A DNA stretch of 64,000 bases from Victivallales bacterium (GTDB lineage: Bacteria > Verrucomicrobiota > Lentisphaeria > Victivallales > UBA1829): assembly GCA_045589595.1 (NCBI GenBank), contig JAZNPK010000010.1, positions 3 to 64,002 on the forward strand, read 5' to 3'. Position 1 is the first letter of the stretch, and each line of letters begins with the position of its first letter. This document shows positions 26,383 to 41,806 of this stretch, in pieces. The notes beneath the pieces were generated by a model. It did not search any database and was not told where the DNA came from. It saw only the letters and a list, made by a program, of their open reading frames with translations. A program made the translations under genes and the position numbers.

Positions 26383-26550
26383 CACACCCGCAGCACAAAC
26401 AGGGCGCGGCAGCGCATCCCGCCGGCGGGATGCCGCGTCCTTTTTTCCGGCAGCAGCCCGCCCGCGGGCGTCTGCCGGAAAAAAGAATGCCAGCCGTGAG
26501 CGTGCTGCTCACGGCTGGCTGCCGCGCTTTGTTTTGTGCTGCGAGGTGTG
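26383..26550. repeat. Nested palindrome element E (closing stem plus three hairpins)
   Basis: Left arm 26383-26413 pairs with right arm 26518-26550 (about 27 bp with a bulge and an internal loop). Inner hairpins lie at 26414-26433, 26440-26485 and 26489-26519. Confidence 0.75.
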
Positions 26551-26551
26551 C

Positions 26552-27352
26552 TTAAATCGTTTCGAGATGTTTCCGCAGCTCGCTGATACGGCATCTGGAC
26601 CGGCAGGGATAGTATGGCATTTTACCGGTACTGCGGAGGATATCGGCATACCGTTCATTCAGTGTACCTCTTGCGGAGATGAACTGACCCCAGAATCCGT
26701 AATGCCACTGGATATCTGTAACGGGTTCGCTCATATTATCGAGCCACTCCTGCGGGAAATAGGACAGCCATTTTTTATTCTGGTTGAGCCATGTTCCTGT
26801 GGCGATAACGGTTGCGCCGTATTCGGTTTCAGCCTTGTCGCACAGTTGGAGCAGACAATTTTTCAGGTACTGCGGATCATCGAAGATGGAGTGCGGGGCA
26901 ACGGCGTTGGCGATATGGAAGCCCAGAGAGATCGCTTCCGGATTATCCTTGTTCGCTTCGAGATTGTGGCGCAGACTGCCGCACTGATAGCCGCGCAGAC
27001 CGCTTTTATCCAGATAATCTTTCAGCAGGCGTTTATCCAGAGAGGGGCGGAACACCTGAAATGCTTTTTCTTCAAATGCGGCTTCATCGTCTTTGTATTG
27101 TTCAAAGATTTCTTCCGCCTGTTTTTCCATTGTGAGCCACGGTTCCTCATCGAAATAGAATTCGACGGGGTTCAGCAGTCCCTTGTTCGCATGAGTTTTC
27201 CGGTAGATATCCACTCTGTTCCGGAGGGCGTTCTGAAAGGTTTCTTCCGGATGTTCTTTCAGCCAGCGGTGGAGAAAAAAGAGTTTCAGCCGGACAATGC
27301 CATGCATATATTCACGATGTTCCCCGATGGTCTTGATTTTCGGTTCTTCCAT
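26552..27352 (-). CDS. hypothetical 266-aa protein, last gene of the nrd/trxB operon
   Basis: ATG 27352 is preceded by a GAGGAG RBS immediately after the trxB stop. No family is recognised. The C-terminus carries CRSRC. Confidence 0.65.
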   Translation of the reverse strand: MEEPKIKTIGEHREYMHGIVRLKLFFLHRWLKEHPEETFQNALRNRVDIYRKTHANKGLLNPVEFYFDEEPWLTMEKQAEEIFEQYKDDEAAFEEKAFQVFRPSLDKRLLKDYLDKSGLRGYQCGSLRHNLEANKDNPEAISLGFHIANAVAPHSIFDDPQYLKNCLLQLCDKAETEYGATVIATGTWLNQNKKWLSYFPQEWLDNMSEPVTDIQWHYGFWGQFISARGTLNERYADILRSTGKMPYYPCRSRCRISELRKHLETI

Positions 27353-27366
27353 GAGTTGCTTGCTCC

Positions 27367-28302
27367 TCAAAACTGTCGTGTTGCCTCAATATATTTACAG
27401 GCGGCGAGTGCTGCCACTGCGCCGTCGCCGGTAGCTGTTGTGATCTGACGGACAAATTTGCTGCGGCAGTCACCGGCAACAAAAACGCCGGGCGTTGCGG
27501 TCAGACACTGTTCGTCGGACACGATATAGCCGTACTGGTTCAGTTCCGCCACATCGGCAAAGGGTTTGTTTTCGGGGACCTGACCGATCGCCACGAAAAT
27601 ACCGTTCACGGGGAAACGGCTGACTTCTCCGGTCTTCTGATTTTTCAGTTCCAGTGCTTCCAGATCTTCCGTTCCTTCCAGTCCGGTGACGATGGTATCG
27701 AAAATGAAACTCACATTGCTGCGCGCCTGAAGATTTTTGATCAGAGCCTCTTCGCCGGTGAGAAAACTCAAATTCTGGATCACGGTAACTTTTGTACAGG
27801 TTTCAGAGAGCAGCACCGCATCCTGCAGCGCGCTGTTGCCGCCGCCGATCACTGCCACTTCCCTGCCGGCAAAGAACGCACCGTCGCAGAGAACGCAGTA
27901 GGAAACGCCGTTGCCGGTGAGTTCCTCCTCGTTGGGCAGTCCCAGCGTCCGGTGTTTTGAGCCGGACGCGATGATGACCGCCTTTGCAAGATATTCGCCC
28001 CGTTCTGTGATAACGCTTTTCCATTCGCCGCCATCCAGAACGTTGATCACGGCATCCACATCCAGTTCAGCGCCGAGATCCAGAGCCTGATCAATGAGTT
28101 TTTCCGCCAGATCGTTTCCGCTGATGGCGGGGAACCCGGGATAATTTTCCACCAGCGGGGAATGGGTGATCTGACCGCCGAACGTATCTTTTTCGAGGAT
28201 CATAACGCTTTTTCCGGCGCGCCGTGCGTAGATCGCAGCAGTCAATCCGGCGGGACCGGCTCCTGCGATCACGATATCATACTGGGGGGTATCCGTTTCC
28301 AC
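27367..28302 (-). CDS. trxB: thioredoxin-disulfide reductase-like flavoprotein (atypical: CVLC dithiol, no HRRxxxR motif)
   Basis: Low-Mr TrxR architecture: [15 protein letters not shown] (FAD), CVLCDG redox centre, [18 protein letters not shown]. The position of E. coli HRRDGFRAE reads QNLSFLTGE. Confidence 0.85.
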   Translation of the reverse strand: [311 protein letters not shown]

Positions 28303-28307
28303 GGTTC

Positions 28308-30719
28308 TTATTCTCCTTCTTCCGTAAATTTGCGGATGTTGGAGACATTGACGATCAGATCGGTCTTTTCGCCATCCTGAATCACCAGCGTGGGCGTCTG
28401 TTTGATGCCGAGCCGTGCCACTTCATCTTTTGCATCTTCCGCGAGACGCACCTGATACTGGAATCCGGCTTTGTCGAGGAAGTGTTTTGCCATTTTGCAA
28501 TTGGGGCAGGTGCGGGTGGTGAAGAGGATCAGACCCGGATCAGATGTGGTGGAGGTGCTGCAATCTGCCGCCGGAGCCGCTTCTGCTGCGGGCGCTGCTG
28601 CTGCCGCCGGAGCGGTGTTCTTGCGGTTTTCAGGCTGCTTGTTCAACGCGATCTGGGCGTCATAGGTTTTGCGGTCGCGGAATTCCTGAGACTTGCCGTC
28701 ATTCCAGTTCTGGACCGGACGGTAGTAACCGGTGATACGGCTGTAAACTTCAGTGGTCTCACTGCATTTCGGGCAGGTGAAGACTTCACCGGCGATATAG
28801 CCGTGATTTTTGCAGACGGCGTATGTGGGGGACAGGGTGTAGTACGGCAGTTTGTAATTTTCCGCGATCTTGCGGACGAGGTTTGCCGCGCTCTTCCAAT
28901 CCGGCAGCTTTTCGCCGAGGAACGCGTGGAACACGGTACCGGACGTATAAAGCGTCTGGAGTTCATCCTGAATATCCAGTGCGGAGAAGATGTCTTCCGT
29001 GAATCCGACGGGCAGGTGGGAGCTGTTGGTGTAGTAGGGCGTTTCGCCTTCGCAGCCCGCAGTGATGATGTCGCTGAACCGTTTTTTGTCGTGTTTGGCA
29101 AGACGGTAAGCGGTGGATTCTGCCGGAGTCGCTTCCAGGTTGTACAGGTCACCGTATTTTTCCTGATAGTCGGAGAGGCGTTCCCGCATGTGGTTCAGCA
29201 CTTCCTGCGTGAATTCCTGGGCTTCCTGATGCGTCAGATCGCAACCGATCCATTTTGCGTTCAGACACGTTTCGTTCATCCCCACCAGACCGATGGTGGA
29301 GAAGTGATTGTTGAAGGTGCCGAGATAACGCTTCGTGTAGGGATAAAGACCGCCGTCCAGCAGTTTTGTGATGATGGTACGTTTGATCTTGAGAGAGCGT
29401 GCGGCAATGTCCATCAGGTGATCCAGGCGGCGGAAGAAGTCTTCCTTATTGGCAGCCAGATAGCCGATACGGGGCATATTGATCGTCACCACACCGATAC
29501 TGCCGGTGCTTTCGCCGCTGCCGAAGAAACCGCCGGATTTCTTGCGGAGTTCGCGCAGGTCGAGACGGAGACGGCAGCACATACTGCGGACATCGCTGGG
29601 TTCCATATCGCTGTTGATGTAGTTGGAGAAGTAGGGCGTACCGTACTTGGAGGTCATTTCAAACAGCAGTTTGTTGTTTTCCGTTTCGGACCAGTCAAAG
29701 TCGCGGGTGATGGAGTAGGTGGGGATTGGATACTGGAAACCGCGTCCGTTGGCGTCGCCTTCGATCATCGTTTCGATGAACGCGCGGTTGACCATGTCCA
29801 TTTCCTTTTTGCAATCTTTGTACTTGAATGGCATTTCCTTGCCGCCCACAATGGCGTTGAGTTCCGCCAGGTCGTTGGGAACTGTCCAGTCCAGCGTAAT
29901 ATTGCTGAAAGGAGCCTGTGTGCCCCAGCGGGAGGGCGTATTCACACCGAAGATGAAGGATTCAATGCACTTTTTGACCTGATCGTAGTTCAGGTTGTCC
30001 GCCTTCACAAAGGGAGCCAGATAAGTATCGAAAGAGGAAAACGCCTGTGCGCCCGCCCATTCGTTCTGCATGATGCCGAGGAAGTTCACCATCTGGTTGC
30101 AGAGCGTGGCAAGGTGTTTTGCCGGATTGGAGGTGATTTTGCCGCCGACGCCGCCCAGACCGACCTGGATCAGCTGTTTCAGAGACCAGCCCGCGCAGTA
30201 ACCGGTGAGCATGGAAAGGTCATGGATATGCAGATCGGCATTCCAATGGGCGTTGGCGATTTCATCGTCGTAACCTTCGCTCAGCCAGTAGTTTGCAGTA
30301 ATTGCGCCGGAGTTGGAAAGGATCAGACCGCCCACGGAATAAGTCACTGTGGAGTTTTCTTTGACGCGCCAGTCATTGATCTTGATGTAGTCATCCACTG
30401 TCTTTTTGTAGTCGAGGATGGAGGATTTGACATTACGCAGCTGTTCGTGCTGACGGCGGTAGATGATGTATGCTTTCGCCACATCGGCATAACCTGCCTG
30501 CACCAGCACCGCTTCCACACTGTCCTGAATGTCTTCAACTGCGATCAGACCTTCTTTGATTTTCGGTTCAAAATCTGCCGTTACTTTCAATGCCAGAAAG
30601 TCGATCACAGAGGGATGACTCTGTTTTTCCTGTGCGTCAAATGCCAGTCTGATTGCCGCCGCGATCTTGCTGATGTTGAAGTCCACGACTTTCCCGTCAC
30701 GCTTTTGTACCTGATACAT
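28308..30719 (-). CDS. nrdD: anaerobic ribonucleoside-triphosphate reductase (class III) with a C-terminal thioredoxin-fold domain
   Basis: N-terminal ATP-cone (VQKRDGKVVDFNISKI), a C-terminal Zn site (CKNHGY...CPKC) and the glycyl-radical motif SRITGYYRPV. These are followed by an Ala/Pro linker and a CPNC thioredoxin-fold domain. Confidence 0.92.
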   Translation of the reverse strand: MYQVQKRDGKVVDFNISKIAAAIRLAFDAQEKQSHPSVIDFLALKVTADFEPKIKEGLIAVEDIQDSVEAVLVQAGYADVAKAYIIYRRQHEQLRNVKSSILDYKKTVDDYIKINDWRVKENSTVTYSVGGLILSNSGAITANYWLSEGYDDEIANAHWNADLHIHDLSMLTGYCAGWSLKQLIQVGLGGVGGKITSNPAKHLATLCNQMVNFLGIMQNEWAGAQAFSSFDTYLAPFVKADNLNYDQVKKCIESFIFGVNTPSRWGTQAPFSNITLDWTVPNDLAELNAIVGGKEMPFKYKDCKKEMDMVNRAFIETMIEGDANGRGFQYPIPTYSITRDFDWSETENNKLLFEMTSKYGTPYFSNYINSDMEPSDVRSMCCRLRLDLRELRKKSGGFFGSGESTGSIGVVTINMPRIGYLAANKEDFFRRLDHLMDIAARSLKIKRTIITKLLDGGLYPYTKRYLGTFNNHFSTIGLVGMNETCLNAKWIGCDLTHQEAQEFTQEVLNHMRERLSDYQEKYGDLYNLEATPAESTAYRLAKHDKKRFSDIITAGCEGETPYYTNSSHLPVGFTEDIFSALDIQDELQTLYTSGTVFHAFLGEKLPDWKSAANLVRKIAENYKLPYYTLSPTYAVCKNHGYIAGEVFTCPKCSETTEVYSRITGYYRPVQNWNDGKSQEFRDRKTYDAQIALNKQPENRKNTAPAAAAAPAAEAAPAADCSTSTTSDPGLILFTTRTCPNCKMAKHFLDKAGFQYQVRLAEDAKDEVARLGIKQTPTLVIQDGEKTDLIVNVSNIRKFTEEGE

Positions 30720-30790: not shown

Positions 30791-31507
30791 TTACATTCCG
30801 CGCAATTCCGCCGCCGGGATATACGGTTTCACTGTTTCCAGACAGGCGTGCATGAGTTCATCGCTCAACGCGCCCATATCCGGCATATCTCCCAGCAGTT
30901 CGCCGTGTTCTGTGAATTTCTGGAGAAAATAGCGGGGCGCCCCCTGCAGCCATTGTCCGACAGCCTCAAAATCTTCCGGTGTATGGAAGGGATGCGCAAC
31001 AGTGGTCCGGAATTCGTGATCGATCCTGCTGTTCCGCAGCAGTTCCACACTGTTCCGCACAGCGTCAAGGGAAAAGCCCGGAACATTCCCCACCGTTTCC
31101 GCATATTTTTCCGGCGAATTTTTTATATCCATCGCCACATAATCCGTAAGATCTGCTTCCAGCAGACGCTGCAGCCGGTCCGGAAACGAGCCGTTGGTAT
31201 CCACTTTGATCCTGTAACCGAGGTTGCGGACTGCACGGAGCATTTCAAAGATCCCGTCGCCGAGCAGCGGTTCGCCGCCGGTAAAACATACACCGTCCAG
31301 CAATCCCTGCCGCTTTTTCAGAAATGTCAGGATCTCTTCTCCGGTAAACAGACCGGATCGGTCTCCGTCCGGCAGAACAAGCATGGCGTTGTGGCAGAAC
31401 GGACAACGGAAATTACACCCGTGTGAAAACACAGTACAGGCGACCCTGCCGGGATAATCCAGCAATGTCATTTTCTGCAATCCGAACCGTTTGTTTTTCA
31501 AATCCAT
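30791..31507 (-). CDS. nrdG: anaerobic ribonucleotide reductase activating protein (radical SAM)
   Basis: Motifs DYPGRVACTVFSHGCNFRCPFCHN (CxxxCxxC) and GVCFTGGEPL. Start set at MDLKNKR (ATG 31507). Confidence 0.88.
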   Translation of the reverse strand: MDLKNKRFGLQKMTLLDYPGRVACTVFSHGCNFRCPFCHNAMLVLPDGDRSGLFTGEEILTFLKKRQGLLDGVCFTGGEPLLGDGIFEMLRAVRNLGYRIKVDTNGSFPDRLQRLLEADLTDYVAMDIKNSPEKYAETVGNVPGFSLDAVRNSVELLRNSRIDHEFRTTVAHPFHTPEDFEAVGQWLQGAPRYFLQKFTEHGELLGDMPDMGALSDELMHACLETVKPYIPAAELRGM

Positions 31508-31578: not shown

Positions 31579-31627
31579 CCACAAGATATTGTGCCGTTAA
31601 GTGGCTAATGTAACACCATTTTGTGGG
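31579..31627 (-). promoter_or_regulatory. Two candidate NrdR boxes
   Basis: CCACAAGATATTGTGC (31579-31594) and AACACCATTTTGTGGG (31612-31627). Both resemble the 16-bp palindromic NrdR box (acaCwAtATaTwgTgt). Their centres are about 33 bp apart. Confidence 0.55.
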
Positions 31628-35993: not shown

Positions 35994-36782
35994 TCACTTG
36001 CTTTTGATCTCTGTTTCGTAAGTCACTCTGCCGGAAAGTCCGCTGATCTTCATGATCTGATAGACCTGCTGATTTTTTGCCCGGGGAGTCAAACGGAGAT
36101 CTTTCAAATGGGGATCAAAATAACCTTCTGTCACATAGATCTCCAGAATATCTTCTTTCGATCCCTGATCCACAAGGTCTTCCTGATTGGAGCTGGTGTA
36201 AAGCTGACCGTTGGGGCTGATGATGACATAACGCTCAAAGTCGATTTTACAGTCAGAGTCGGAGAAAAGATCATCATCGCTGAATGTTTCATAAATGCGG
36301 CGGAGATTGCCCACATGAACATTCTTGATCGGTCTGTCGAGAACGGAAAAATGTGCGTCATTATCGCTGATGATGGAGCCTTCCGGCAAACGGACCCAGT
36401 CCGAATTGGGCAGCCACATGACAAAGTAAAATTCGTTGGTGCTGGTCTTGGTCACCAGCGCTGTACGGCAGGACGCATTGTAGTAGCCGGCAAGTTTGGA
36501 GGAGTCCTTGTCTGTTCTGTCACCATCCAGATCGTTTTTGCGCAATTCTTCCATGCGGGGGAAGATCACCGCCACATAACAATGATTGGTCAATGCGTAG
36601 TTTCTGGCAATGGCGATCTGACCTGCAATTTCCTGCGTTGCATGCGTCAGGACTTTACTGCGGGAAATTCGTGTGAAGGAGGGGACCGTGATACCGATGA
36701 GCATCCCCATCAGGATCATGACCACGATCAGTTCGATCAGGGTGAACGAACGGTTCCGGCTGTTTTGTTTCAGTTTCATCAT
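35994..36782 (-). CDS. prepilin-type N-terminal cleavage/methylation domain protein (pseudopilin)
   Basis: N-terminus MMKLKQNSRNRS-FTLIELIVVMILMGMLIGI: FTLIE with Glu at +5, then a hydrophobic helix. Confidence 0.8.
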   Translation of the reverse strand: MMKLKQNSRNRSFTLIELIVVMILMGMLIGITVPSFTRISRSKVLTHATQEIAGQIAIARNYALTNHCYVAVIFPRMEELRKNDLDGDRTDKDSSKLAGYYNASCRTALVTKTSTNEFYFVMWLPNSDWVRLPEGSIISDNDAHFSVLDRPIKNVHVGNLRRIYETFSDDDLFSDSDCKIDFERYVIISPNGQLYTSSNQEDLVDQGSKEDILEIYVTEGYFDPHLKDLRLTPRAKNQQVYQIMKISGLSGRVTYETEIKSK

Positions 36783-37444
36783 TTATCTTTTTCTCCCGCC
36801 GCTGAAGATTGCTGTTTGAGTTTTTCAGCCGCCAGCCACGCCTGTCCGCGGCGCTGACGGTTCTTTTTCACCAGTTCCCGGTATTTTTCCCGCGGAATGA
36901 TCTTCTTTTTGGCACGCAGACAATCTTTATATTTGTCCACGGTCTTTTCGAAGTTGTCAAATGCTTTGTCAAAGTAATCTTTATTGCCGGAAAAACGGGC
37001 TTTGTCCAGAATACTGACCGCCTGTTTGATTTGCATTCCGGCTCTGCCCAAATTGATGTACCAGTCCAGTTCATGACGGGTCACTTCCTGCAGATCGTCT
37101 TTGGAAATGTCATTCATAAAAAGCGTTTCATAGGGAAAGAAATGTTTTCTGAACTCAATGGACGAGATCACATATTCTTTTCCTTCGGCAAGTTCCCCTT
37201 CTTTCGCTTTCTTCCGGACGTTGGTGTTGTTGGCAGGATCCTTCCGGTATTTTGCCGTAGCCCAGTCTGTGAAAGTCTTGATCTTGTCCAATACAAATGT
37301 TTCATTGTATGGGGGAGCCAGAACTTCCTCCGGCACCATAACGCGTTTCTGACGCTGCTGCGCCGGCAGAAGCACGGCTGCGAACAGCAGAAGAAGCGTC
37401 AGCGCCGCACTGAAAATTTTTCCGGTATTATTCCGCATATTCAT
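36779..37444 (-). CDS. hypothetical exported or membrane-anchored protein
   Basis: N-terminal hydrophobic signal IFSAALTLLLLFAAVLLPAQQ. It overlaps both neighbouring genes, indicating translational coupling within the pseudopilin operon. Confidence 0.65.
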   Translation of the reverse strand: MNMRNNTGKIFSAALTLLLLFAAVLLPAQQRQKRVMVPEEVLAPPYNETFVLDKIKTFTDWATAKYRKDPANNTNVRKKAKEGELAEGKEYVISSIEFRKHFFPYETLFMNDISKDDLQEVTRHELDWYINLGRAGMQIKQAVSILDKARFSGNKDYFDKAFDNFEKTVDKYKDCLRAKKKIIPREKYRELVKKNRQRRGQAWLAAEKLKQQSSAAGEKDK

Positions 37445-40400
37445 ATTTCACAACTCCCCATGTACCTTCCGTCTGATTGAATTCCAGATCAATGATGACC
37501 TTTGTTTCGCCGGTGATGGCATCTGCACCGGCGTCAAATCTGCCCTTCTGTGCATCTACGATCGCTTCCAGCAGCACGCCGTTGGGCGGGTTTGCAAACA
37601 GGGAAACATTATCTTCCGCCGCATCCGAAAACTTGCGGTACCCGGCTTGGAACTGGGCTGCTGTGTTTTCTTCTTTTCTCAGATTTGCAGAACTGATCTG
37701 CGCGATCTTACCGTCGTTGTTCCAGTCTTTCACCGTAACGGCATCACCGGCATCACGCAACGTCTGCACGATCATGATCGCTTTGAGTTTTTTCGGCGTG
37801 GAATTGACTTTGACAAGATTGATGAATCTGCCGATGATCTGTTCTTCCTGCGCGTCAGTTTTGTTCTGCCCGCCGTCTGCGACCTGACGGATCGGGAACA
37901 GGATATCACCGTTTGAATTGTCGATCGCCAACAAGTCGGAACGGCGGAAGAAACGGTATTTGAACTTATCCTTGTCATCCTCATAACACTCGCCATTGTC
38001 GCTGCCGTTATCTTTTTCTGCGCTGTAGAGACCATCCCAGCCGTTACCGCCGTAGATCGCTCTGTCAAGTGTAGAGGCGAGAATGAGAGCATCGTACTCG
38101 TAATCCGGTTTGTTGCCGTGTCCATTGGGATAGATGATCTCTTCCGTTTCCGTGCTGTTGATGACGGCATTCGAGTCTTCTATACCGCTGCGGTCCAGAC
38201 CCTGACGGAGATAATTTCCGTGGACCCGGATGGGCATATTGTTGAAGAGAGAACCGTAAATAACATTGCGGATGTCCGTATTGGTCTGACGCGCCAGTGC
38301 CACTTTGCCGAGAACAACAGCGTCATTGACCATTTTGAGCTGATCAAGGATGGGCGCATCACCGTATTTGTATTCCCCGCCGCCGAGGTCTTTGAATCCT
38401 TTTGCCTTGATGTAGGCTGCGCGGGACACACTGATATTCAGACTCTGCCATTTCGCTGCACGGTGGATCGCTCCCAGTTCCCAGAGGGATTCCATCGGCA
38501 TTTCACCGCGTCCTTCAATATAATGACGGATAAACGCTGTGGAAATATGGGTTTCGCGGGTCGCTTTTTCCTTGATGCCGGTATAGGTGATCGCGCCGAT
38601 ACCACCGCCGATGCCACCACCGATGCCTCCGCCGATACCACCGCCGATGCCTCCGCCGATACCGCCGCCGATACCGCCGCCGATACCGCCGCCGATACCG
38701 CCGCCGCCACCACCGCCGCCTTTCTGGCTGCGTGCCCAGGCGGGATCACTGGTGACTTCATAGTCCTGAGTCGCGCGATCACCGCTCTTCTTGCCGTATT
38801 TGCAAGTGACAACAGAGTTTGTACCGATCTGTCCTTTCAGAGACAGCGAGTGTTCGTTTTTGTTGCCCATCAATGTGTTGAGGTAATTTGCATACTGCTG
38901 GTTGTCCCGGTCTTTCTTCTTTTCGTCCCGGACGCTCCAGTCGCCGCTGTTCAGGTTCTGACGGGGATCATCCACTTCCATGTCGCGGTAATAAACCACA
39001 CCCGAACCTGCATTGTAGAGCGAGACATTCACTTCATCATTCCATGCTGTATCCACATTGATATTGGCGCAGTCCACATATTCTTCCGCTTTGCCTTCGG
39101 GGAATGTGGCGCATTTTGACTGTCCTTCTTCGGACGTGGTCTTTCTGCGTTTCAGCAGCAGACGCTGGATGTTGACTTTCACATTTCTGATCTTGATCCG
39201 TTCACTGAGGGAGGCATCGTTAAAAGTTCCGGCATTTGCAGTGAAGTTGCGGGTGGCAATGACTTTTTCATCTTCCTCCGCAAGATATGCAAAATATCCG
39301 GTCTTCGCAACCGTGGACGAATAACTCATAATGTCTTCCGCCCGCGTCTGTGTCAGACTTTTCAGATCAATGGTGACGGGTGTGGCGTTCCACTGATTTG
39401 TCTGGGGTTCCAGAAATTCAAAGGAGAGAGTACCGATGATCTCCGGGGTGTACCGGCTGAAATCGCAGGGATTTCTCGGTGACGGTTCCTGGGCATCATT
39501 GGCGTTGTCGCCCAGTGTGTTATAGTACATATCCACCAGTTCCGTGATGAATTTGTAGTCCAGTTTGTATTCCACTGAAATGGTCTGAATCTGGCTGTTC
39601 GCCGGCTGGTCAATGTGCTGGTCTGCACTGAAATGAAGCAGGAAGAAATGTTCATTCAGGTACAGGGTCCGTTTCAAACCGGTATATTTCGGCGGTGTGT
39701 CTTTCCATTTATCCGGATCGACATCGGACACGACCGGGCGGCTTGCGGGTGAACAGAAGTTCAGCAGGTTCGCGAGGATCTGGTTCCGTTTATCTTCTTC
39801 ACTATCCCAGCCGCCTTCTTTATCCGCCCAGTTTTTGAACCAGGGGATACCGCCGGTATTCAAATCGTCTTTTGTGGGATTTTCGGGAACGAACGGAACA
39901 GGATCGGCGATCAGATCCCCGATTCCCAAATTATTCCAGTCCGTACGGCGCATATTGAAACGGTGATAAAATTCGCCTTCATCTTCGCTGCCGTTTTCGT
40001 TTTCGTCTTCCCACCAGGCTTCTTTATCGCCGGTTGTTTCCACGGTGAGATATTTTTCCACATTGGCAACGATCTGTGCGTAGTCCGCCTTTTCGGCATT
40101 GGATGCGGAAGATCCGGGCTTTTCATTGCCAAAAGAGGAGAGCAGATCCTGCGTATTCTGCCAGATCCGGTAATTTCTGCCGCCGAAATCGGCGCGGGTG
40201 CTGTAGAATTTTGACCGCAGGGAGGATGTCACAGCTCTGCCGTCGCCGAGGTTTTCGATCTTCTGGGACTGACCGCCATCGGAGGGCGGGATGTTCAGCG
40301 CACCATCGCTGTCGCTGCCGTTATTCAGCGTGAAAAACAGTTCAGCCGCAGAGTTGCCGAGGCGTTTTGCGCAGTAGTTGCAGCCGTCTGCAAGGTCCCG

Positions 40401-41051
40401 GTTCTGTTCTGTGGTCAGGTGTTTGCAGTAAACATGGTTTGCAATGGCGTTGGGATTCAGGCGTGCCAGAGTGGGAATGGTGATGTAGGCAAAACGGGCG
40501 ATCACAGCACCGCTGTGGTTCGAGTTTCCGCTGGCGGGTCTGCCTTTCGGTTCATGGATATACTGCCAGTTCGGCAGTGTTTTTGCATCGTATTCCCGGT
40601 TTCCGTGCTTGTCTTCGGAATAGGTCGGCAATGCCGGTTTCGTACCGTCGGAATTCTCGGAATTGGCTTCAAATGCGAAGTTTGTACCGTCTTCCAGTTT
40701 CCAGATCCAGTCAAAGTCGTACCGGTCATCTTTGATCTCTTTCCATTTTTTACCGCCTTCTGCATCGGGATCATCATCATCCGCATCTTCGCCGGATGCG
40801 ACGGAGGAAAAGAGCAGCTGATCCTGAAAACGTGTGGATTTATTGATGCCGATGATCACGCGGGGGATCAGGGATTTTGCCAGAATACGGGCGGAAAGGT
40901 TTTCACGCTGGATGGAGGAGATGGTGGACTCCACTCTTGCTTTTGATGCAAACATCATTGCGACGACAACCAGTACGGAAAGGACCCCCAATGCAAACAG
41001 CAGAGCGGTACCTTTGTTCTTTCTCAGATTTTTCCATTTTGATTTTTTCAT
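37428..41051 (-). CDS. giant GspK-like minor pseudopilin (1207 aa) with a (GGGI)9 glycine repeat
   Basis: N-terminus KNKGTALLFALGVLSVLVVVAMMFA matches the uncleaved GspK/PulK-type anchor. Start set at ATG 41051 (AGGTG RBS); the ORF-track TTG start at 41069 is rejected. Confidence 0.7.
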   Translation of the reverse strand: MKKSKWKNLRKNKGTALLFALGVLSVLVVVAMMFASKARVESTISSIQRENLSARILAKSLIPRVIIGINKSTRFQDQLLFSSVASGEDADDDDPDAEGGKKWKEIKDDRYDFDWIWKLEDGTNFAFEANSENSDGTKPALPTYSEDKHGNREYDAKTLPNWQYIHEPKGRPASGNSNHSGAVIARFAYITIPTLARLNPNAIANHVYCKHLTTEQNRDLADGCNYCAKRLGNSAAELFFTLNNGSDSDGALNIPPSDGGQSQKIENLGDGRAVTSSLRSKFYSTRADFGGRNYRIWQNTQDLLSSFGNEKPGSSASNAEKADYAQIVANVEKYLTVETTGDKEAWWEDENENGSEDEGEFYHRFNMRRTDWNNLGIGDLIADPVPFVPENPTKDDLNTGGIPWFKNWADKEGGWDSEEDKRNQILANLLNFCSPASRPVVSDVDPDKWKDTPPKYTGLKRTLYLNEHFFLLHFSADQHIDQPANSQIQTISVEYKLDYKFITELVDMYYNTLGDNANDAQEPSPRNPCDFSRYTPEIIGTLSFEFLEPQTNQWNATPVTIDLKSLTQTRAEDIMSYSSTVAKTGYFAYLAEEDEKVIATRNFTANAGTFNDASLSERIKIRNVKVNIQRLLLKRRKTTSEEGQSKCATFPEGKAEEYVDCANINVDTAWNDEVNVSLYNAGSGVVYYRDMEVDDPRQNLNSGDWSVRDEKKKDRDNQQYANYLNTLMGNKNEHSLSLKGQIGTNSVVTCKYGKKSGDRATQDYEVTSDPAWARSQKGGGGGGGGIGGGIGGGIGGGIGGGIGGGIGGGIGGGIGGGIGAITYTGIKEKATRETHISTAFIRHYIEGRGEMPMESLWELGAIHRAAKWQSLNISVSRAAYIKAKGFKDLGGGEYKYGDAPILDQLKMVNDAVVLGKVALARQTNTDIRNVIYGSLFNNMPIRVHGNYLRQGLDRSGIEDSNAVINSTETEEIIYPNGHGNKPDYEYDALILASTLDRAIYGGNGWDGLYSAEKDNGSDNGECYEDDKDKFKYRFFRRSDLLAIDNSNGDILFPIRQVADGGQNKTDAQEEQIIGRFINLVKVNSTPKKLKAIMIVQTLRDAGDAVTVKDWNNDGKIAQISSANLRKEENTAAQFQAGYRKFSDAAEDNVSLFANPPNGVLLEAIVDAQKGRFDAGADAITGETKVIIDLEFNQTEGTWGVVKYEYAE
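38595..38720 (-). repeat. In-frame 12-nt tandem repeat encoding G5-(GGGI)9-G
   Basis: The plus strand reads GCC GAT followed by eight 12-mers ending in GAT, then a run of eight Gly codons. Three consecutive perfect copies of ACCGCCGCCGAT lie at 38661-38696. Confidence 0.95.
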
Positions 41052-41065
41052 GTCTGCACCTGCTT

Positions 41066-41806
41066 TCAACGGGGTTTGACCAAGGTCAGATCAACGGGAA
41101 TGACCCGTGTGAAATACTGATAACGCTGGATCAAGGCATCATTGCTGTTGCCGAGCGCTTTTTTGATGCGGGTTTCGTCAACATTGTTTTCTTCCGCATC
41201 TTTGAGACTCTTGTATCCCAGACGGAGCGTATCCTCATCCAGCAGCGCCATTTGCAGGATCAGCGTATGAGGCAGACCGTTCAGGGCTTTCTGATAAGAA
41301 CCGTCGCCGGATGTGGAGAGCTGCTGAAGAACTTCCTGGTCGATTTTGAATTTTGCCACATTTTTCAGCAGAATGGCTTTGTGGCTGGGATTGCGTTCAA
41401 AAGCCAGATCGTCTTCGATCCAACGGTAAACTTCCATCGTCAGGGTATATTTTGACTTGTTATAGGAGTAAACGACCCGGCAGAGCTGATCAAGCGTACC
41501 CATACGCTTTGTCAGGACCTCAAGCGTTTCGCCGTTGTCTTCGATCTTGATAACATCGTTGTTATCATAGTTATCGCCTTTGTCCGTGAAAAAGTCGGCA
41601 GCACCGATATCGGTTTCGATGATCCCGATCACCGTACGGGCGTCTTCAAAAATATTCATCTTGCTGATACCGAGGGATGTGGTTTTCTGGGTCTGATTCA
41701 GCATGGAAAGCAGAGAGTACACGATCAGAGACAGCAGCCCGGTCGCCATCAGCATTTCAAGAATGGTGAAGGAAAATTTTCTTTTCAAAAGGTTTCTTTT
41801 TTTCAT
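41066..41806 (-). CDS. prepilin-type N-terminal cleavage/methylation domain protein (GspJ/PilW-like)
   Basis: N-terminus MKKRNLLKRKFS-FTILEMLMATGLLSLIVYSLL. Confidence 0.8.
   Translation of the reverse strand: MKKRNLLKRKFSFTILEMLMATGLLSLIVYSLLSMLNQTQKTTSLGISKMNIFEDARTVIGIIETDIGAADFFTDKGDNYDNNDVIKIEDNGETLEVLTKRMGTLDQLCRVVYSYNKSKYTLTMEVYRWIEDDLAFERNPSHKAILLKNVAKFKIDQEVLQQLSTSGDGSYQKALNGLPHTLILQMALLDEDTLRLGYKSLKDAEENNVDETRIKKALGNSNDALIQRYQYFTRVIPVDLTLVKPR

Follow-up and report, generated by a model that had tools for sequence, protein, structure and literature searches.

A probable NADH-preferring thioredoxin reductase encoded behind a redoxin-fused class III ribonucleotide reductase

The window studied here, the whole 64,000-nucleotide stretch of DNA from a Victivallales bacterium, carries directly behind nrdD a gene for a flavoprotein that resembles thioredoxin reductase along its length and has none of the residues that hold the phosphate of NADPH. 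This raises the question of what reduces the flavoprotein and what it reduces in turn. Because the NADPH-phosphate residues are swapped and the gene stands behind a redoxin-bearing NrdD, the enzyme most likely feeds NrdD from NADH. We imagine an NADH-preferring thioredoxin reductase, drawn from a clostridial stock of NADPH enzymes and travelling with a thiol-type NrdD, with electrons running from NADH to FAD, to C136/C139, to the redoxin, and on to NrdD; we give this reading a probability of roughly 0.65. The flavin-disulfide relay would follow from the thioredoxin reductase family, NADH is the presumed donor by convergence on the Thermotoga pattern, and the NrdD redoxin is the putative acceptor by synteny and a complex model.

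The reductase and its dinucleotide site

The gene (27367..28302, minus strand) is a single trxB-like open reading frame with a GTG start, encoding 311 amino acids. We annotated it as a low-Mr flavin thioredoxin reductase of QNL type from the reading frame, TIGR01292, and a structure model. Its motifs are GAGPAG (residues 14-19), CVLC (136-139), GGGNSA (153-158), and AGD (276-278), and both Pfam and NCBIfam assign the protein to the low-Mr thioredoxin reductases. The model, built from an 80-row alignment (pLDDT 89), matches solved thioredoxin reductases with TM scores of 0.90 to 0.92; the lowest rmsd among the matches listed is 1.6, to 7JYP (TM 0.92). The marks of the low-Mr flavin family are present, namely, the FAD GxGxxG, the GD, a CxxC in the second domain, and the fold, and the full-length likeness claimed in a preliminary description of the sequence is borne out by motifs, family profiles, and fold match alike. 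The TIGR01292 score, 326.5 bits, lies just below the curated cut-off of 343.45; since a member of the QNL clade from elsewhere (G113) passes, this cut-off does not cleanly separate the types.

Both cysteines of the redox-active dithiol, C136-V-L-C139 (27886..27897, minus strand), are invariant in all 121 proteins of a set made up of the query and the 120 best of 8000 scored homologues. The preliminary description had set CVLC against CATC. The motif is indeed CVLC, but as a difference it is minor, position 137 being Ala in 90 of the 121 and Val in 31, and we dropped it as a meaningful change.

The segment QNLSFLTGE (176-184; 27751..27777, minus strand) replaces HRRDGFRAE in alignment with E. 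coli TrxB and relatives. The H-R-R…R of E. coli TrxB corresponds to Q176-N177-L178…T182, and residues 172-185 contain neither His nor Arg, just as had been described for this segment. Across the 121 proteins, Q176, N177, L178, T182, G183, and E184 do not vary. Chance, sequencing error, or a pseudogene is ruled out by the open frame and the invariant motif, and the invariance of the Q-N-L…T-G-E set points to a selected new site, not to decay.

Compensating Arg or Lys residues, which the preliminary description had named as grounds against its reading, were looked for by alignment, the basis on which the phosphate pocket was judged throughout; within 172-185, none of the columns is predominantly basic in the 34 Q[ND]L sequences. 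Column 186 is Lys or Arg in 65% of these 34 and Ala in the query protein, and the other basic columns (116, 118, 124, 147, 171, 194, and 220) are also basic in at least half of at least one HRR group. The pyrophosphate-binding loop GGGNSA (27829..27846, minus strand) is intact, with GGGNxA found in 34/34 Q[ND]L loci and 120/121 homologues. R285-Q286 (27445..27450, minus strand), which we take to lie near the nicotinamide, aligns with the same pair in the canonical NADPH enzymes (NTRs) and the Thermotogae-type enzymes and with Leu-Gln in TRi-like enzymes. These two residues, like I-G at 239-240 (Ile or Val at 239), are kept in all 34 Q[ND]L loci. Given that GGGNxA, I-G, and RQ are retained and that no basic replacement appears, it seems that the phosphate pocket was remodeled and the dinucleotide site otherwise kept, and the alignment supports loss of the NADPH 2′-phosphate site in the QNL protein.

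The electron donor

The protein shares architecture, FAD motifs, CxxC, and GGGxxA with the canonical NTRs (E. coli TrxB, B. cereus 7AAW, and the clostridial enzymes). Its top raw score is to 7AAW (E-value of 6e-79, 42% identity), and the QNL clade is nested among clostridial HRR enzymes. It differs from the canonical NTRs in Q-N-L…T for H-R-R…R, in a Gln at the E160 position, in its score below the TIGR01292 cut-off, and in reading GNG rather than G[R/K]G at residues 130-132, where N occurs in 18 of the 34 Q[ND]L loci. G[R/K]G is the thioredoxin-binding motif of NTRs according to a passage of PMC5627308.

The precedent for NADH comes from Thermotogae. 7JYP, the Thermosipho africanus thioredoxin reductase (E-value of 1e-72, 41% identity), reads VQNLPYLTAA at the position of QNLSFLTGE. 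It and the T. maritima enzyme share with the QNL protein the fold, GGGxxA, and RQ, as well as the replacement of HRRxxxR by Q-[N/L]-L-x-x-L-T; they differ in that the loop ends in TAA rather than TGE, in the low identity, and in a separate origin. The partners would differ as well, in that the Thermotogae-type loci read have a gene for a 221-aa, two-CxxC redoxin upstream, whereas the proposed partner of the QNL protein is a small redoxin fused to NrdD. A metagenome pattern scan returned 19 loci of the 7JYP type, all of them thioredoxin reductases (QNL in 17, QLL in 2). The metagenome Thermotoga-type enzyme L135 has QLLETLTA, C147/C150, G251, P254, and a 25.2-kDa redoxin gene upstream. The same numbers are given for T. 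maritima thioredoxin reductase, which "preferentially oxidizes NADH" in the portion of PMC8395237 available to us (also PMC5627308, likewise in part); from this numbering, L135 would be the T. maritima enzyme. For the thioredoxin reductase of T. acidophilum, another enzyme that lacks HRRxxxR, a later report gives activity with NADH and none with NADPH (PMC6262447). The preliminary description did not mention the NADH-preferring Thermotogae precedent with Q-x-L-x-x-x-T. In the literature searched, we found neither a cofactor for the 7JYP enzyme nor any paper on 7JYP. E. coli AhpF, an NADH-linked enzyme, has EFAPEMKAD at the aligned phosphate site. The classic NADH signature has an acidic residue, and the Gln of QNL is not acidic.

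Trees were built with motif columns 174-185 masked (a 241-row FastTree and a 79-row IQ-TREE subset). The QNL clade, of 33 rows (SH-aLRT 98), was nested among clostridial HRR enzymes, in a group with a support of 96, and the Thermotogae-type clade (support 100) was placed apart from it. Forcing the QNL and Thermotogae types together was rejected with a p-AU of 0.00036, in a test on 47 rows (21 versus 26; LG+G4, quick tree, masked columns) whose grouping was picked after the first tree. Horizontal transfer from Thermotogae is ruled out by the same value. With a shared origin rejected, the QNL motif is a case of convergence, and because the same substitutions arose twice, we read them as selection for the same donor. 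The QNL enzyme is not an orthologue of the Thermotogae enzyme (41% identity, against 42% to the B. cereus NTR), and the donor assignment therefore rests on convergence. The QNL clade also takes in P0122, which has the HRR motif, and two further Q variants; the nesting of P0122 under masking suggests a reversion or recombination.

Two alternatives on the donor are to be weighed. The foremost, in our judgment an unlikely one, is relaxed specificity, with NADH and NADPH used about equally or a weak preference for NADPH remaining. Being uncharged, Gln and Asn could still admit a phosphate, and T. maritima thioredoxin reductase still turns over NADPH, with a Km of 780 μM (PMC6544261, in the part available to us). 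Both motif states can also serve the same job, as 10 nrdD-linked enzymes are HRR and P0122 sits in the QNL clade. However, all three phosphate-holding Arg residues are lost with no replacement, and the invariant set looks like a newly selected site rather than a decaying one. About equally unlikely is an FFTR-like function, in which ferredoxin or flavodoxin would feed the QNL enzyme and low-potential electrons would pass to the NrdD redoxin. HRRxxxR is absent here as it is in FFTR, DTR, and TRi (6GNA, 5J60, and 5NII), which share the thioredoxin reductase fold with CxxC; the host, presumably a fermenting anaerobe, carries two small ORFs resembling ferredoxins; and in a sister state of nrdD-linked enzymes, TLFD, found at eight loci, the second Gly of the pyrophosphate loop has also become Asp, so the site can decay further. 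It also counts against the NADH reading that the Gloeobacter enzyme (GvDTR), which is without HRR, uses neither pyridine nucleotide (PMC8154056, in part), and the same is reported for D. vulgaris TRi, with its GEGxxA and TQGK motifs, in PMC5627308.

Nonetheless, ferredoxin is the weaker reading, since GGGNSA and R285-Q286, lost in the ferredoxin-type and TRi-type enzymes, are kept. We take 6GNA to be a clostridial FFTR and 5NII to be D. vulgaris TRi. Together with 5J60, they score far worse than the NTRs and 7JYP, by roughly 40 orders of magnitude (1e-41 for 5J60 and 2e-34 for 6GNA), and the QNL protein, at 311 aa, is longer than 6GNA (288) and the TRi-like proteins (about 284). 5J60 and 6GND are tied to ferredoxin-type enzymes through papers. 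The clostridial FFTR is described as being without both GxGxxA and HRRxxxR (PMC10880999, in part), whereas the QNL protein has lost only HRRxxxR, and it has neither the T[Q/N]GK nor the GEGxxA of TRi. The Gloeobacter enzyme requires a C-terminal Trp tail for ferredoxin binding (PMC8154056, same portion); the QNL protein, in contrast, has a short tail ending in Phe, and this aromatic end is not conserved (TRQF here; TRMM, EMER, DSLQ, and DSKK in relatives). No ferredoxin-type motif was found in the DNA of the 34 Q[ND]L loci. The FFTR and DTR comparators of the preliminary description do lack HRRxxxR, but by sequence score they are not the closest kin; of the donors it proposed for a route to the ribonucleotide reductase, NADH is favored and ferredoxin is not, and the link to the reductase itself finds support. 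Three short reductases (L055 to L057) were considered as FFTRs and rejected when the one tested, L055, proved closest to 5NII; they entered the trees as TRi-like stand-ins in place of characterized FFTR sequences.

The nrdD operon and the proposed path

The reductase gene is the third in the order nrdG, nrdD, trxB, GNAT-like ORF, terminator-like hairpin. Its start lies 5 bases past the nrdD stop, and the end of nrdD contains AAGGAG, which resembles a ribosome-binding site. The nrdG activase gene, of the NrdG2 type (30791..31507, minus strand; TIGR02495 over cut-off), likely starts at the ATG at 31507 and not at the GTG at 31582; the alignment of its relatives begins only at about residue 24-33. 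Upstream of nrdG are a candidate NrdR box, a palindrome at 31579..31594 matching what we take to be the NrdR consensus, a weaker second copy at about 31612-31626, and a sigma70-like promoter (31634-31607), each of them not above chance on the window alone. An NrdR-like box is present in 27 of 30 nrdD loci, and nrdR is encoded in the genome. Further such sites lie elsewhere in the genome (G000:C18:28057, C11:26887, and C32:222559), the C18 site about 290 bases from nrdR (C18:28344-28778).

The 272-aa ORF that overlaps the trxB stop (26552..27370, minus strand) has no Pfam or NCBIfam match and is GNAT-like by language-model features; its ESM Atlas neighbors are hypothetical proteins frequent in Lentisphaerota, some with GNAT_C. 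It is probably cotranscribed with trxB. We rejected it as part of the module, as it adjoins trxB in only one other locus (L009). The hairpin that follows it (26489..26519, minus strand; 13 pairs) is terminator-like by consensus match only. Elsewhere in the window, a 1213-aa ORF in which a GGGI stretch recurs (37428-41069, minus strand) lies beside genes with prepilin-type N termini (35994-36782).

The class III ribonucleotide reductase itself (nrdD, 28308..30719, minus strand; 803 aa) has an ATP cone, C175, a finger loop of M380-C381-C382-R383, E529, and the glycyl-radical motif RITGY. After an Ala/Pro-rich linker, it ends in a glutaredoxin/NrdH-like domain (28308..28529, minus strand; PF00462 over cut-off) with CPNC at 738-741. 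The betaA Cys (C175), the double Cys (C381/C382), and E529 align with T. maritima NrdD, giving the features of NrdD2 (PMC4493059, PMC9669993); the E529 position is Leu in formate-type P. copri NrdD, which we take 8P23 to be. By analogy with N. bacilliformis NrdD, the chemistry here would be of thiol type. PMC4493059 takes the third Cys together with the Glu as the mark of NrdD2 and names the MCCR form NrdDh4. The protein shares these features with thiol-dependent NrdD2 enzymes (N. bacilliformis, T. maritima, and NrdDh4) but differs in its C-terminally fused redoxin, in the reductase gene next to it, and in keeping Met380, which the thioredoxin-only subclades are without (PMC9669993). All 49 fused NrdDs compared read RSMCCRL, Met380 included, and 48 of them have LEATPAES. 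In one genome the fused nrdD appears to be split in two near residues 275-308 (L175; G135:C60:8912-11209), perhaps through an insertion, a frameshift, or an assembly fault. A RefSeq survey lists one glutaredoxin:NrdD fusion in the portions of its text and supplement available to us (PMC6187632), and the accessible part of PMC9531940 added nothing on redoxin fusions.

In the genome (96.75% complete), PF02867 found no class I or II large subunit. The sole PFL-family protein (L195; G000:C13:8253-9632) falls far below the PFL cut-offs over the 460 residues scanned, and no NCBIfam family scored above cut-off on the scanned part of this glycyl radical enzyme.

Modeled together with NrdD residues 726-803, the TrxB dimer scored 0.76, against 0.00 for the best control. 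The pass mark was reached by 116 of 157 solved pairs and 2 of 215 mismatched ones. The runs share at least 96% of their contacts, and partner pLDDT is at least 87. In the model, the CPNC loop is placed against residues 37-46 and 61-82 of the FAD domain, and no confident contact to C136/C139 is listed. Because complexes of thioredoxin reductase with thioredoxin have been solved, this pass may be memory. We imagine that NADH would reduce the FAD, that the domains would then rotate so that FAD could reduce the C136-C139 dithiol, and that this dithiol would reduce the CPNC disulfide of the fused redoxin. The tethered redoxin could then restore the active site of NrdD after each turnover by reducing its disulfide, formed between C175 and either C381 or C382. 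In genomes without another TrxB, the QNL enzyme would probably reduce free thioredoxin too.

Distribution, origin, and implications

We compared 99 TrxB loci chosen by similarity to the query, and so not at random, among them 34 Q[ND]L, 50 HRR, and 8 TLFD. All 34 Q[ND]L genes lie downstream of, and on the same strand as, an nrdD whose product has a CPNC domain; the distance is at most 164 bases in 33 and 1.1 kb in 1. In 32 of these loci the nrdD fusion could be read in one frame, and in the other two the locus ends too early to show it; L010 and L021 are apparently the same gene. Linkage to nrdD is seen in 10/50 HRR and 8/8 TLFD loci. The TLFD enzymes (L011, L012, L013, L014, L086, L092, L094, and L097) have TLFD[RK]FFGD, a GD[GA]NTA loop with G154 replaced by Asp, and Tyr161, and they form one clade (support 96). 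They may be the best candidates in the nrdD-linked lineage for a non-pyridine donor or for differently bound NADH. The three Firmicutes genomes with the short TRi-like reductases (G151, G153, and G154) also carry a TLFD enzyme linked to nrdD, and a search at an E-value of 1e-30 found no HRR TrxB in them. In the class to which L011 belongs, presumably Clostridia, 300 genomes were scored; 58 pass at 1e-100, and at least 35 of these are nrdD linked (20 Q[ND]L, 5 TLFD, and 10 HRR), counts that are a floor in a set whose center genome was picked for the trait. Since kin are not independent, these locus and genome counts, like those for Lentisphaeria below, are descriptive.

Within the class Lentisphaeria (151 genomes), 27 have a fused NrdD, 11 with the QNL gene adjoining and 16 without; for 3 of the 16, less than 700 bases of downstream sequence are available. 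All 16 genomes encode one TrxB of ordinary score at another locus, with HRR read directly in only 1. The QNL enzyme is thus dispensable for the NrdD fusion. In 8 of the 10 other Lentisphaeria carriers (those 8 genomes being 92 to 97% complete), the QNL enzyme is the only TrxB found, and 7 of these 8 encode a free thioredoxin. A strictly private reductase is ruled out by both groups of genomes, those without the QNL gene and those with no other TrxB. The QNL enzyme is dedicated by position and regulation, yet interchangeable with an NTR.

One could suppose that it is a general thioredoxin reductase merely coregulated with nrdD and that NrdD runs on formate via Met380. The carriers with no other TrxB would fit this idea, as would the Met380 of every fused NrdD, given that most double-Cys NrdDs retain Met and might use either reductant (PMC9669993, in part). 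We consider it very improbable. Every Q[ND]L locus lies behind a redoxin-fused nrdD, CPNC is conserved in all, a canonical HRR TrxB that clears the cut-off and a WCGPC thioredoxin are encoded at other places in the Victivallales genome, and no canonical PFL was found.

The best-scoring named homologues of the QNL protein are from Lentisphaeria and Victivallales, with Clostridia next, so that the host would be an anaerobe of gut type within Lentisphaeria. In the trees, Lentisphaeria sequences interleave with clostridial ones, and the NrdDs are 70 to 78% identical across both phyla; together, these observations suggest that the QNL module was transferred from Clostridia to Lentisphaeria. At 55.3% G+C, against 52.0% for the genome, trxB bears no sign of recent transfer. 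A plasmid search gave best matches of at most 47%, and the module was not seen among the 15 matches listed of 1046.

NADH-preferring thioredoxin reductases and thiol-dependent NrdDs are each already known, and all of the parts are of known kinds. What is added is a test of separate origin, three motif states, and the distribution relative to canonical TrxB. We found no description of the QNL clade or operon, and no assay of a clade member, in the literature searched; Wei 2014, Wei 2015, and Yang and Ma 2010 may bear on the former. A broader proposal seems to us evenly balanced: that this is a second, independent NADH-specific thioredoxin reductase, that with the redoxin-fused NrdD it makes up a self-contained, formate-free NADH-to-dNTP module, that this module moved from Clostridia to Lentisphaeria, in some of them displacing the NADPH enzyme to become the sole thioredoxin reductase of the cell, and that HRR, QNL, and TLFD form a natural series for donor change in thioredoxin reductase. 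If the NADH reading is right, many gut anaerobes would make DNA precursors from catabolic NADH through a two-protein chain, rather than from formate or NADPH. The locus is also a compact test system for whether MCCR-type class III enzymes use thiols or formate. Sorting TrxBs by motif absence into NTR and "probably FFTR," as in the available part of PMC10880999, can miss an NADH class.

Two other TrxBs of the class Lentisphaeria (L035 and L040) are about 470 aa long, one of them with glutaredoxin-like repeats before the reductase domain.
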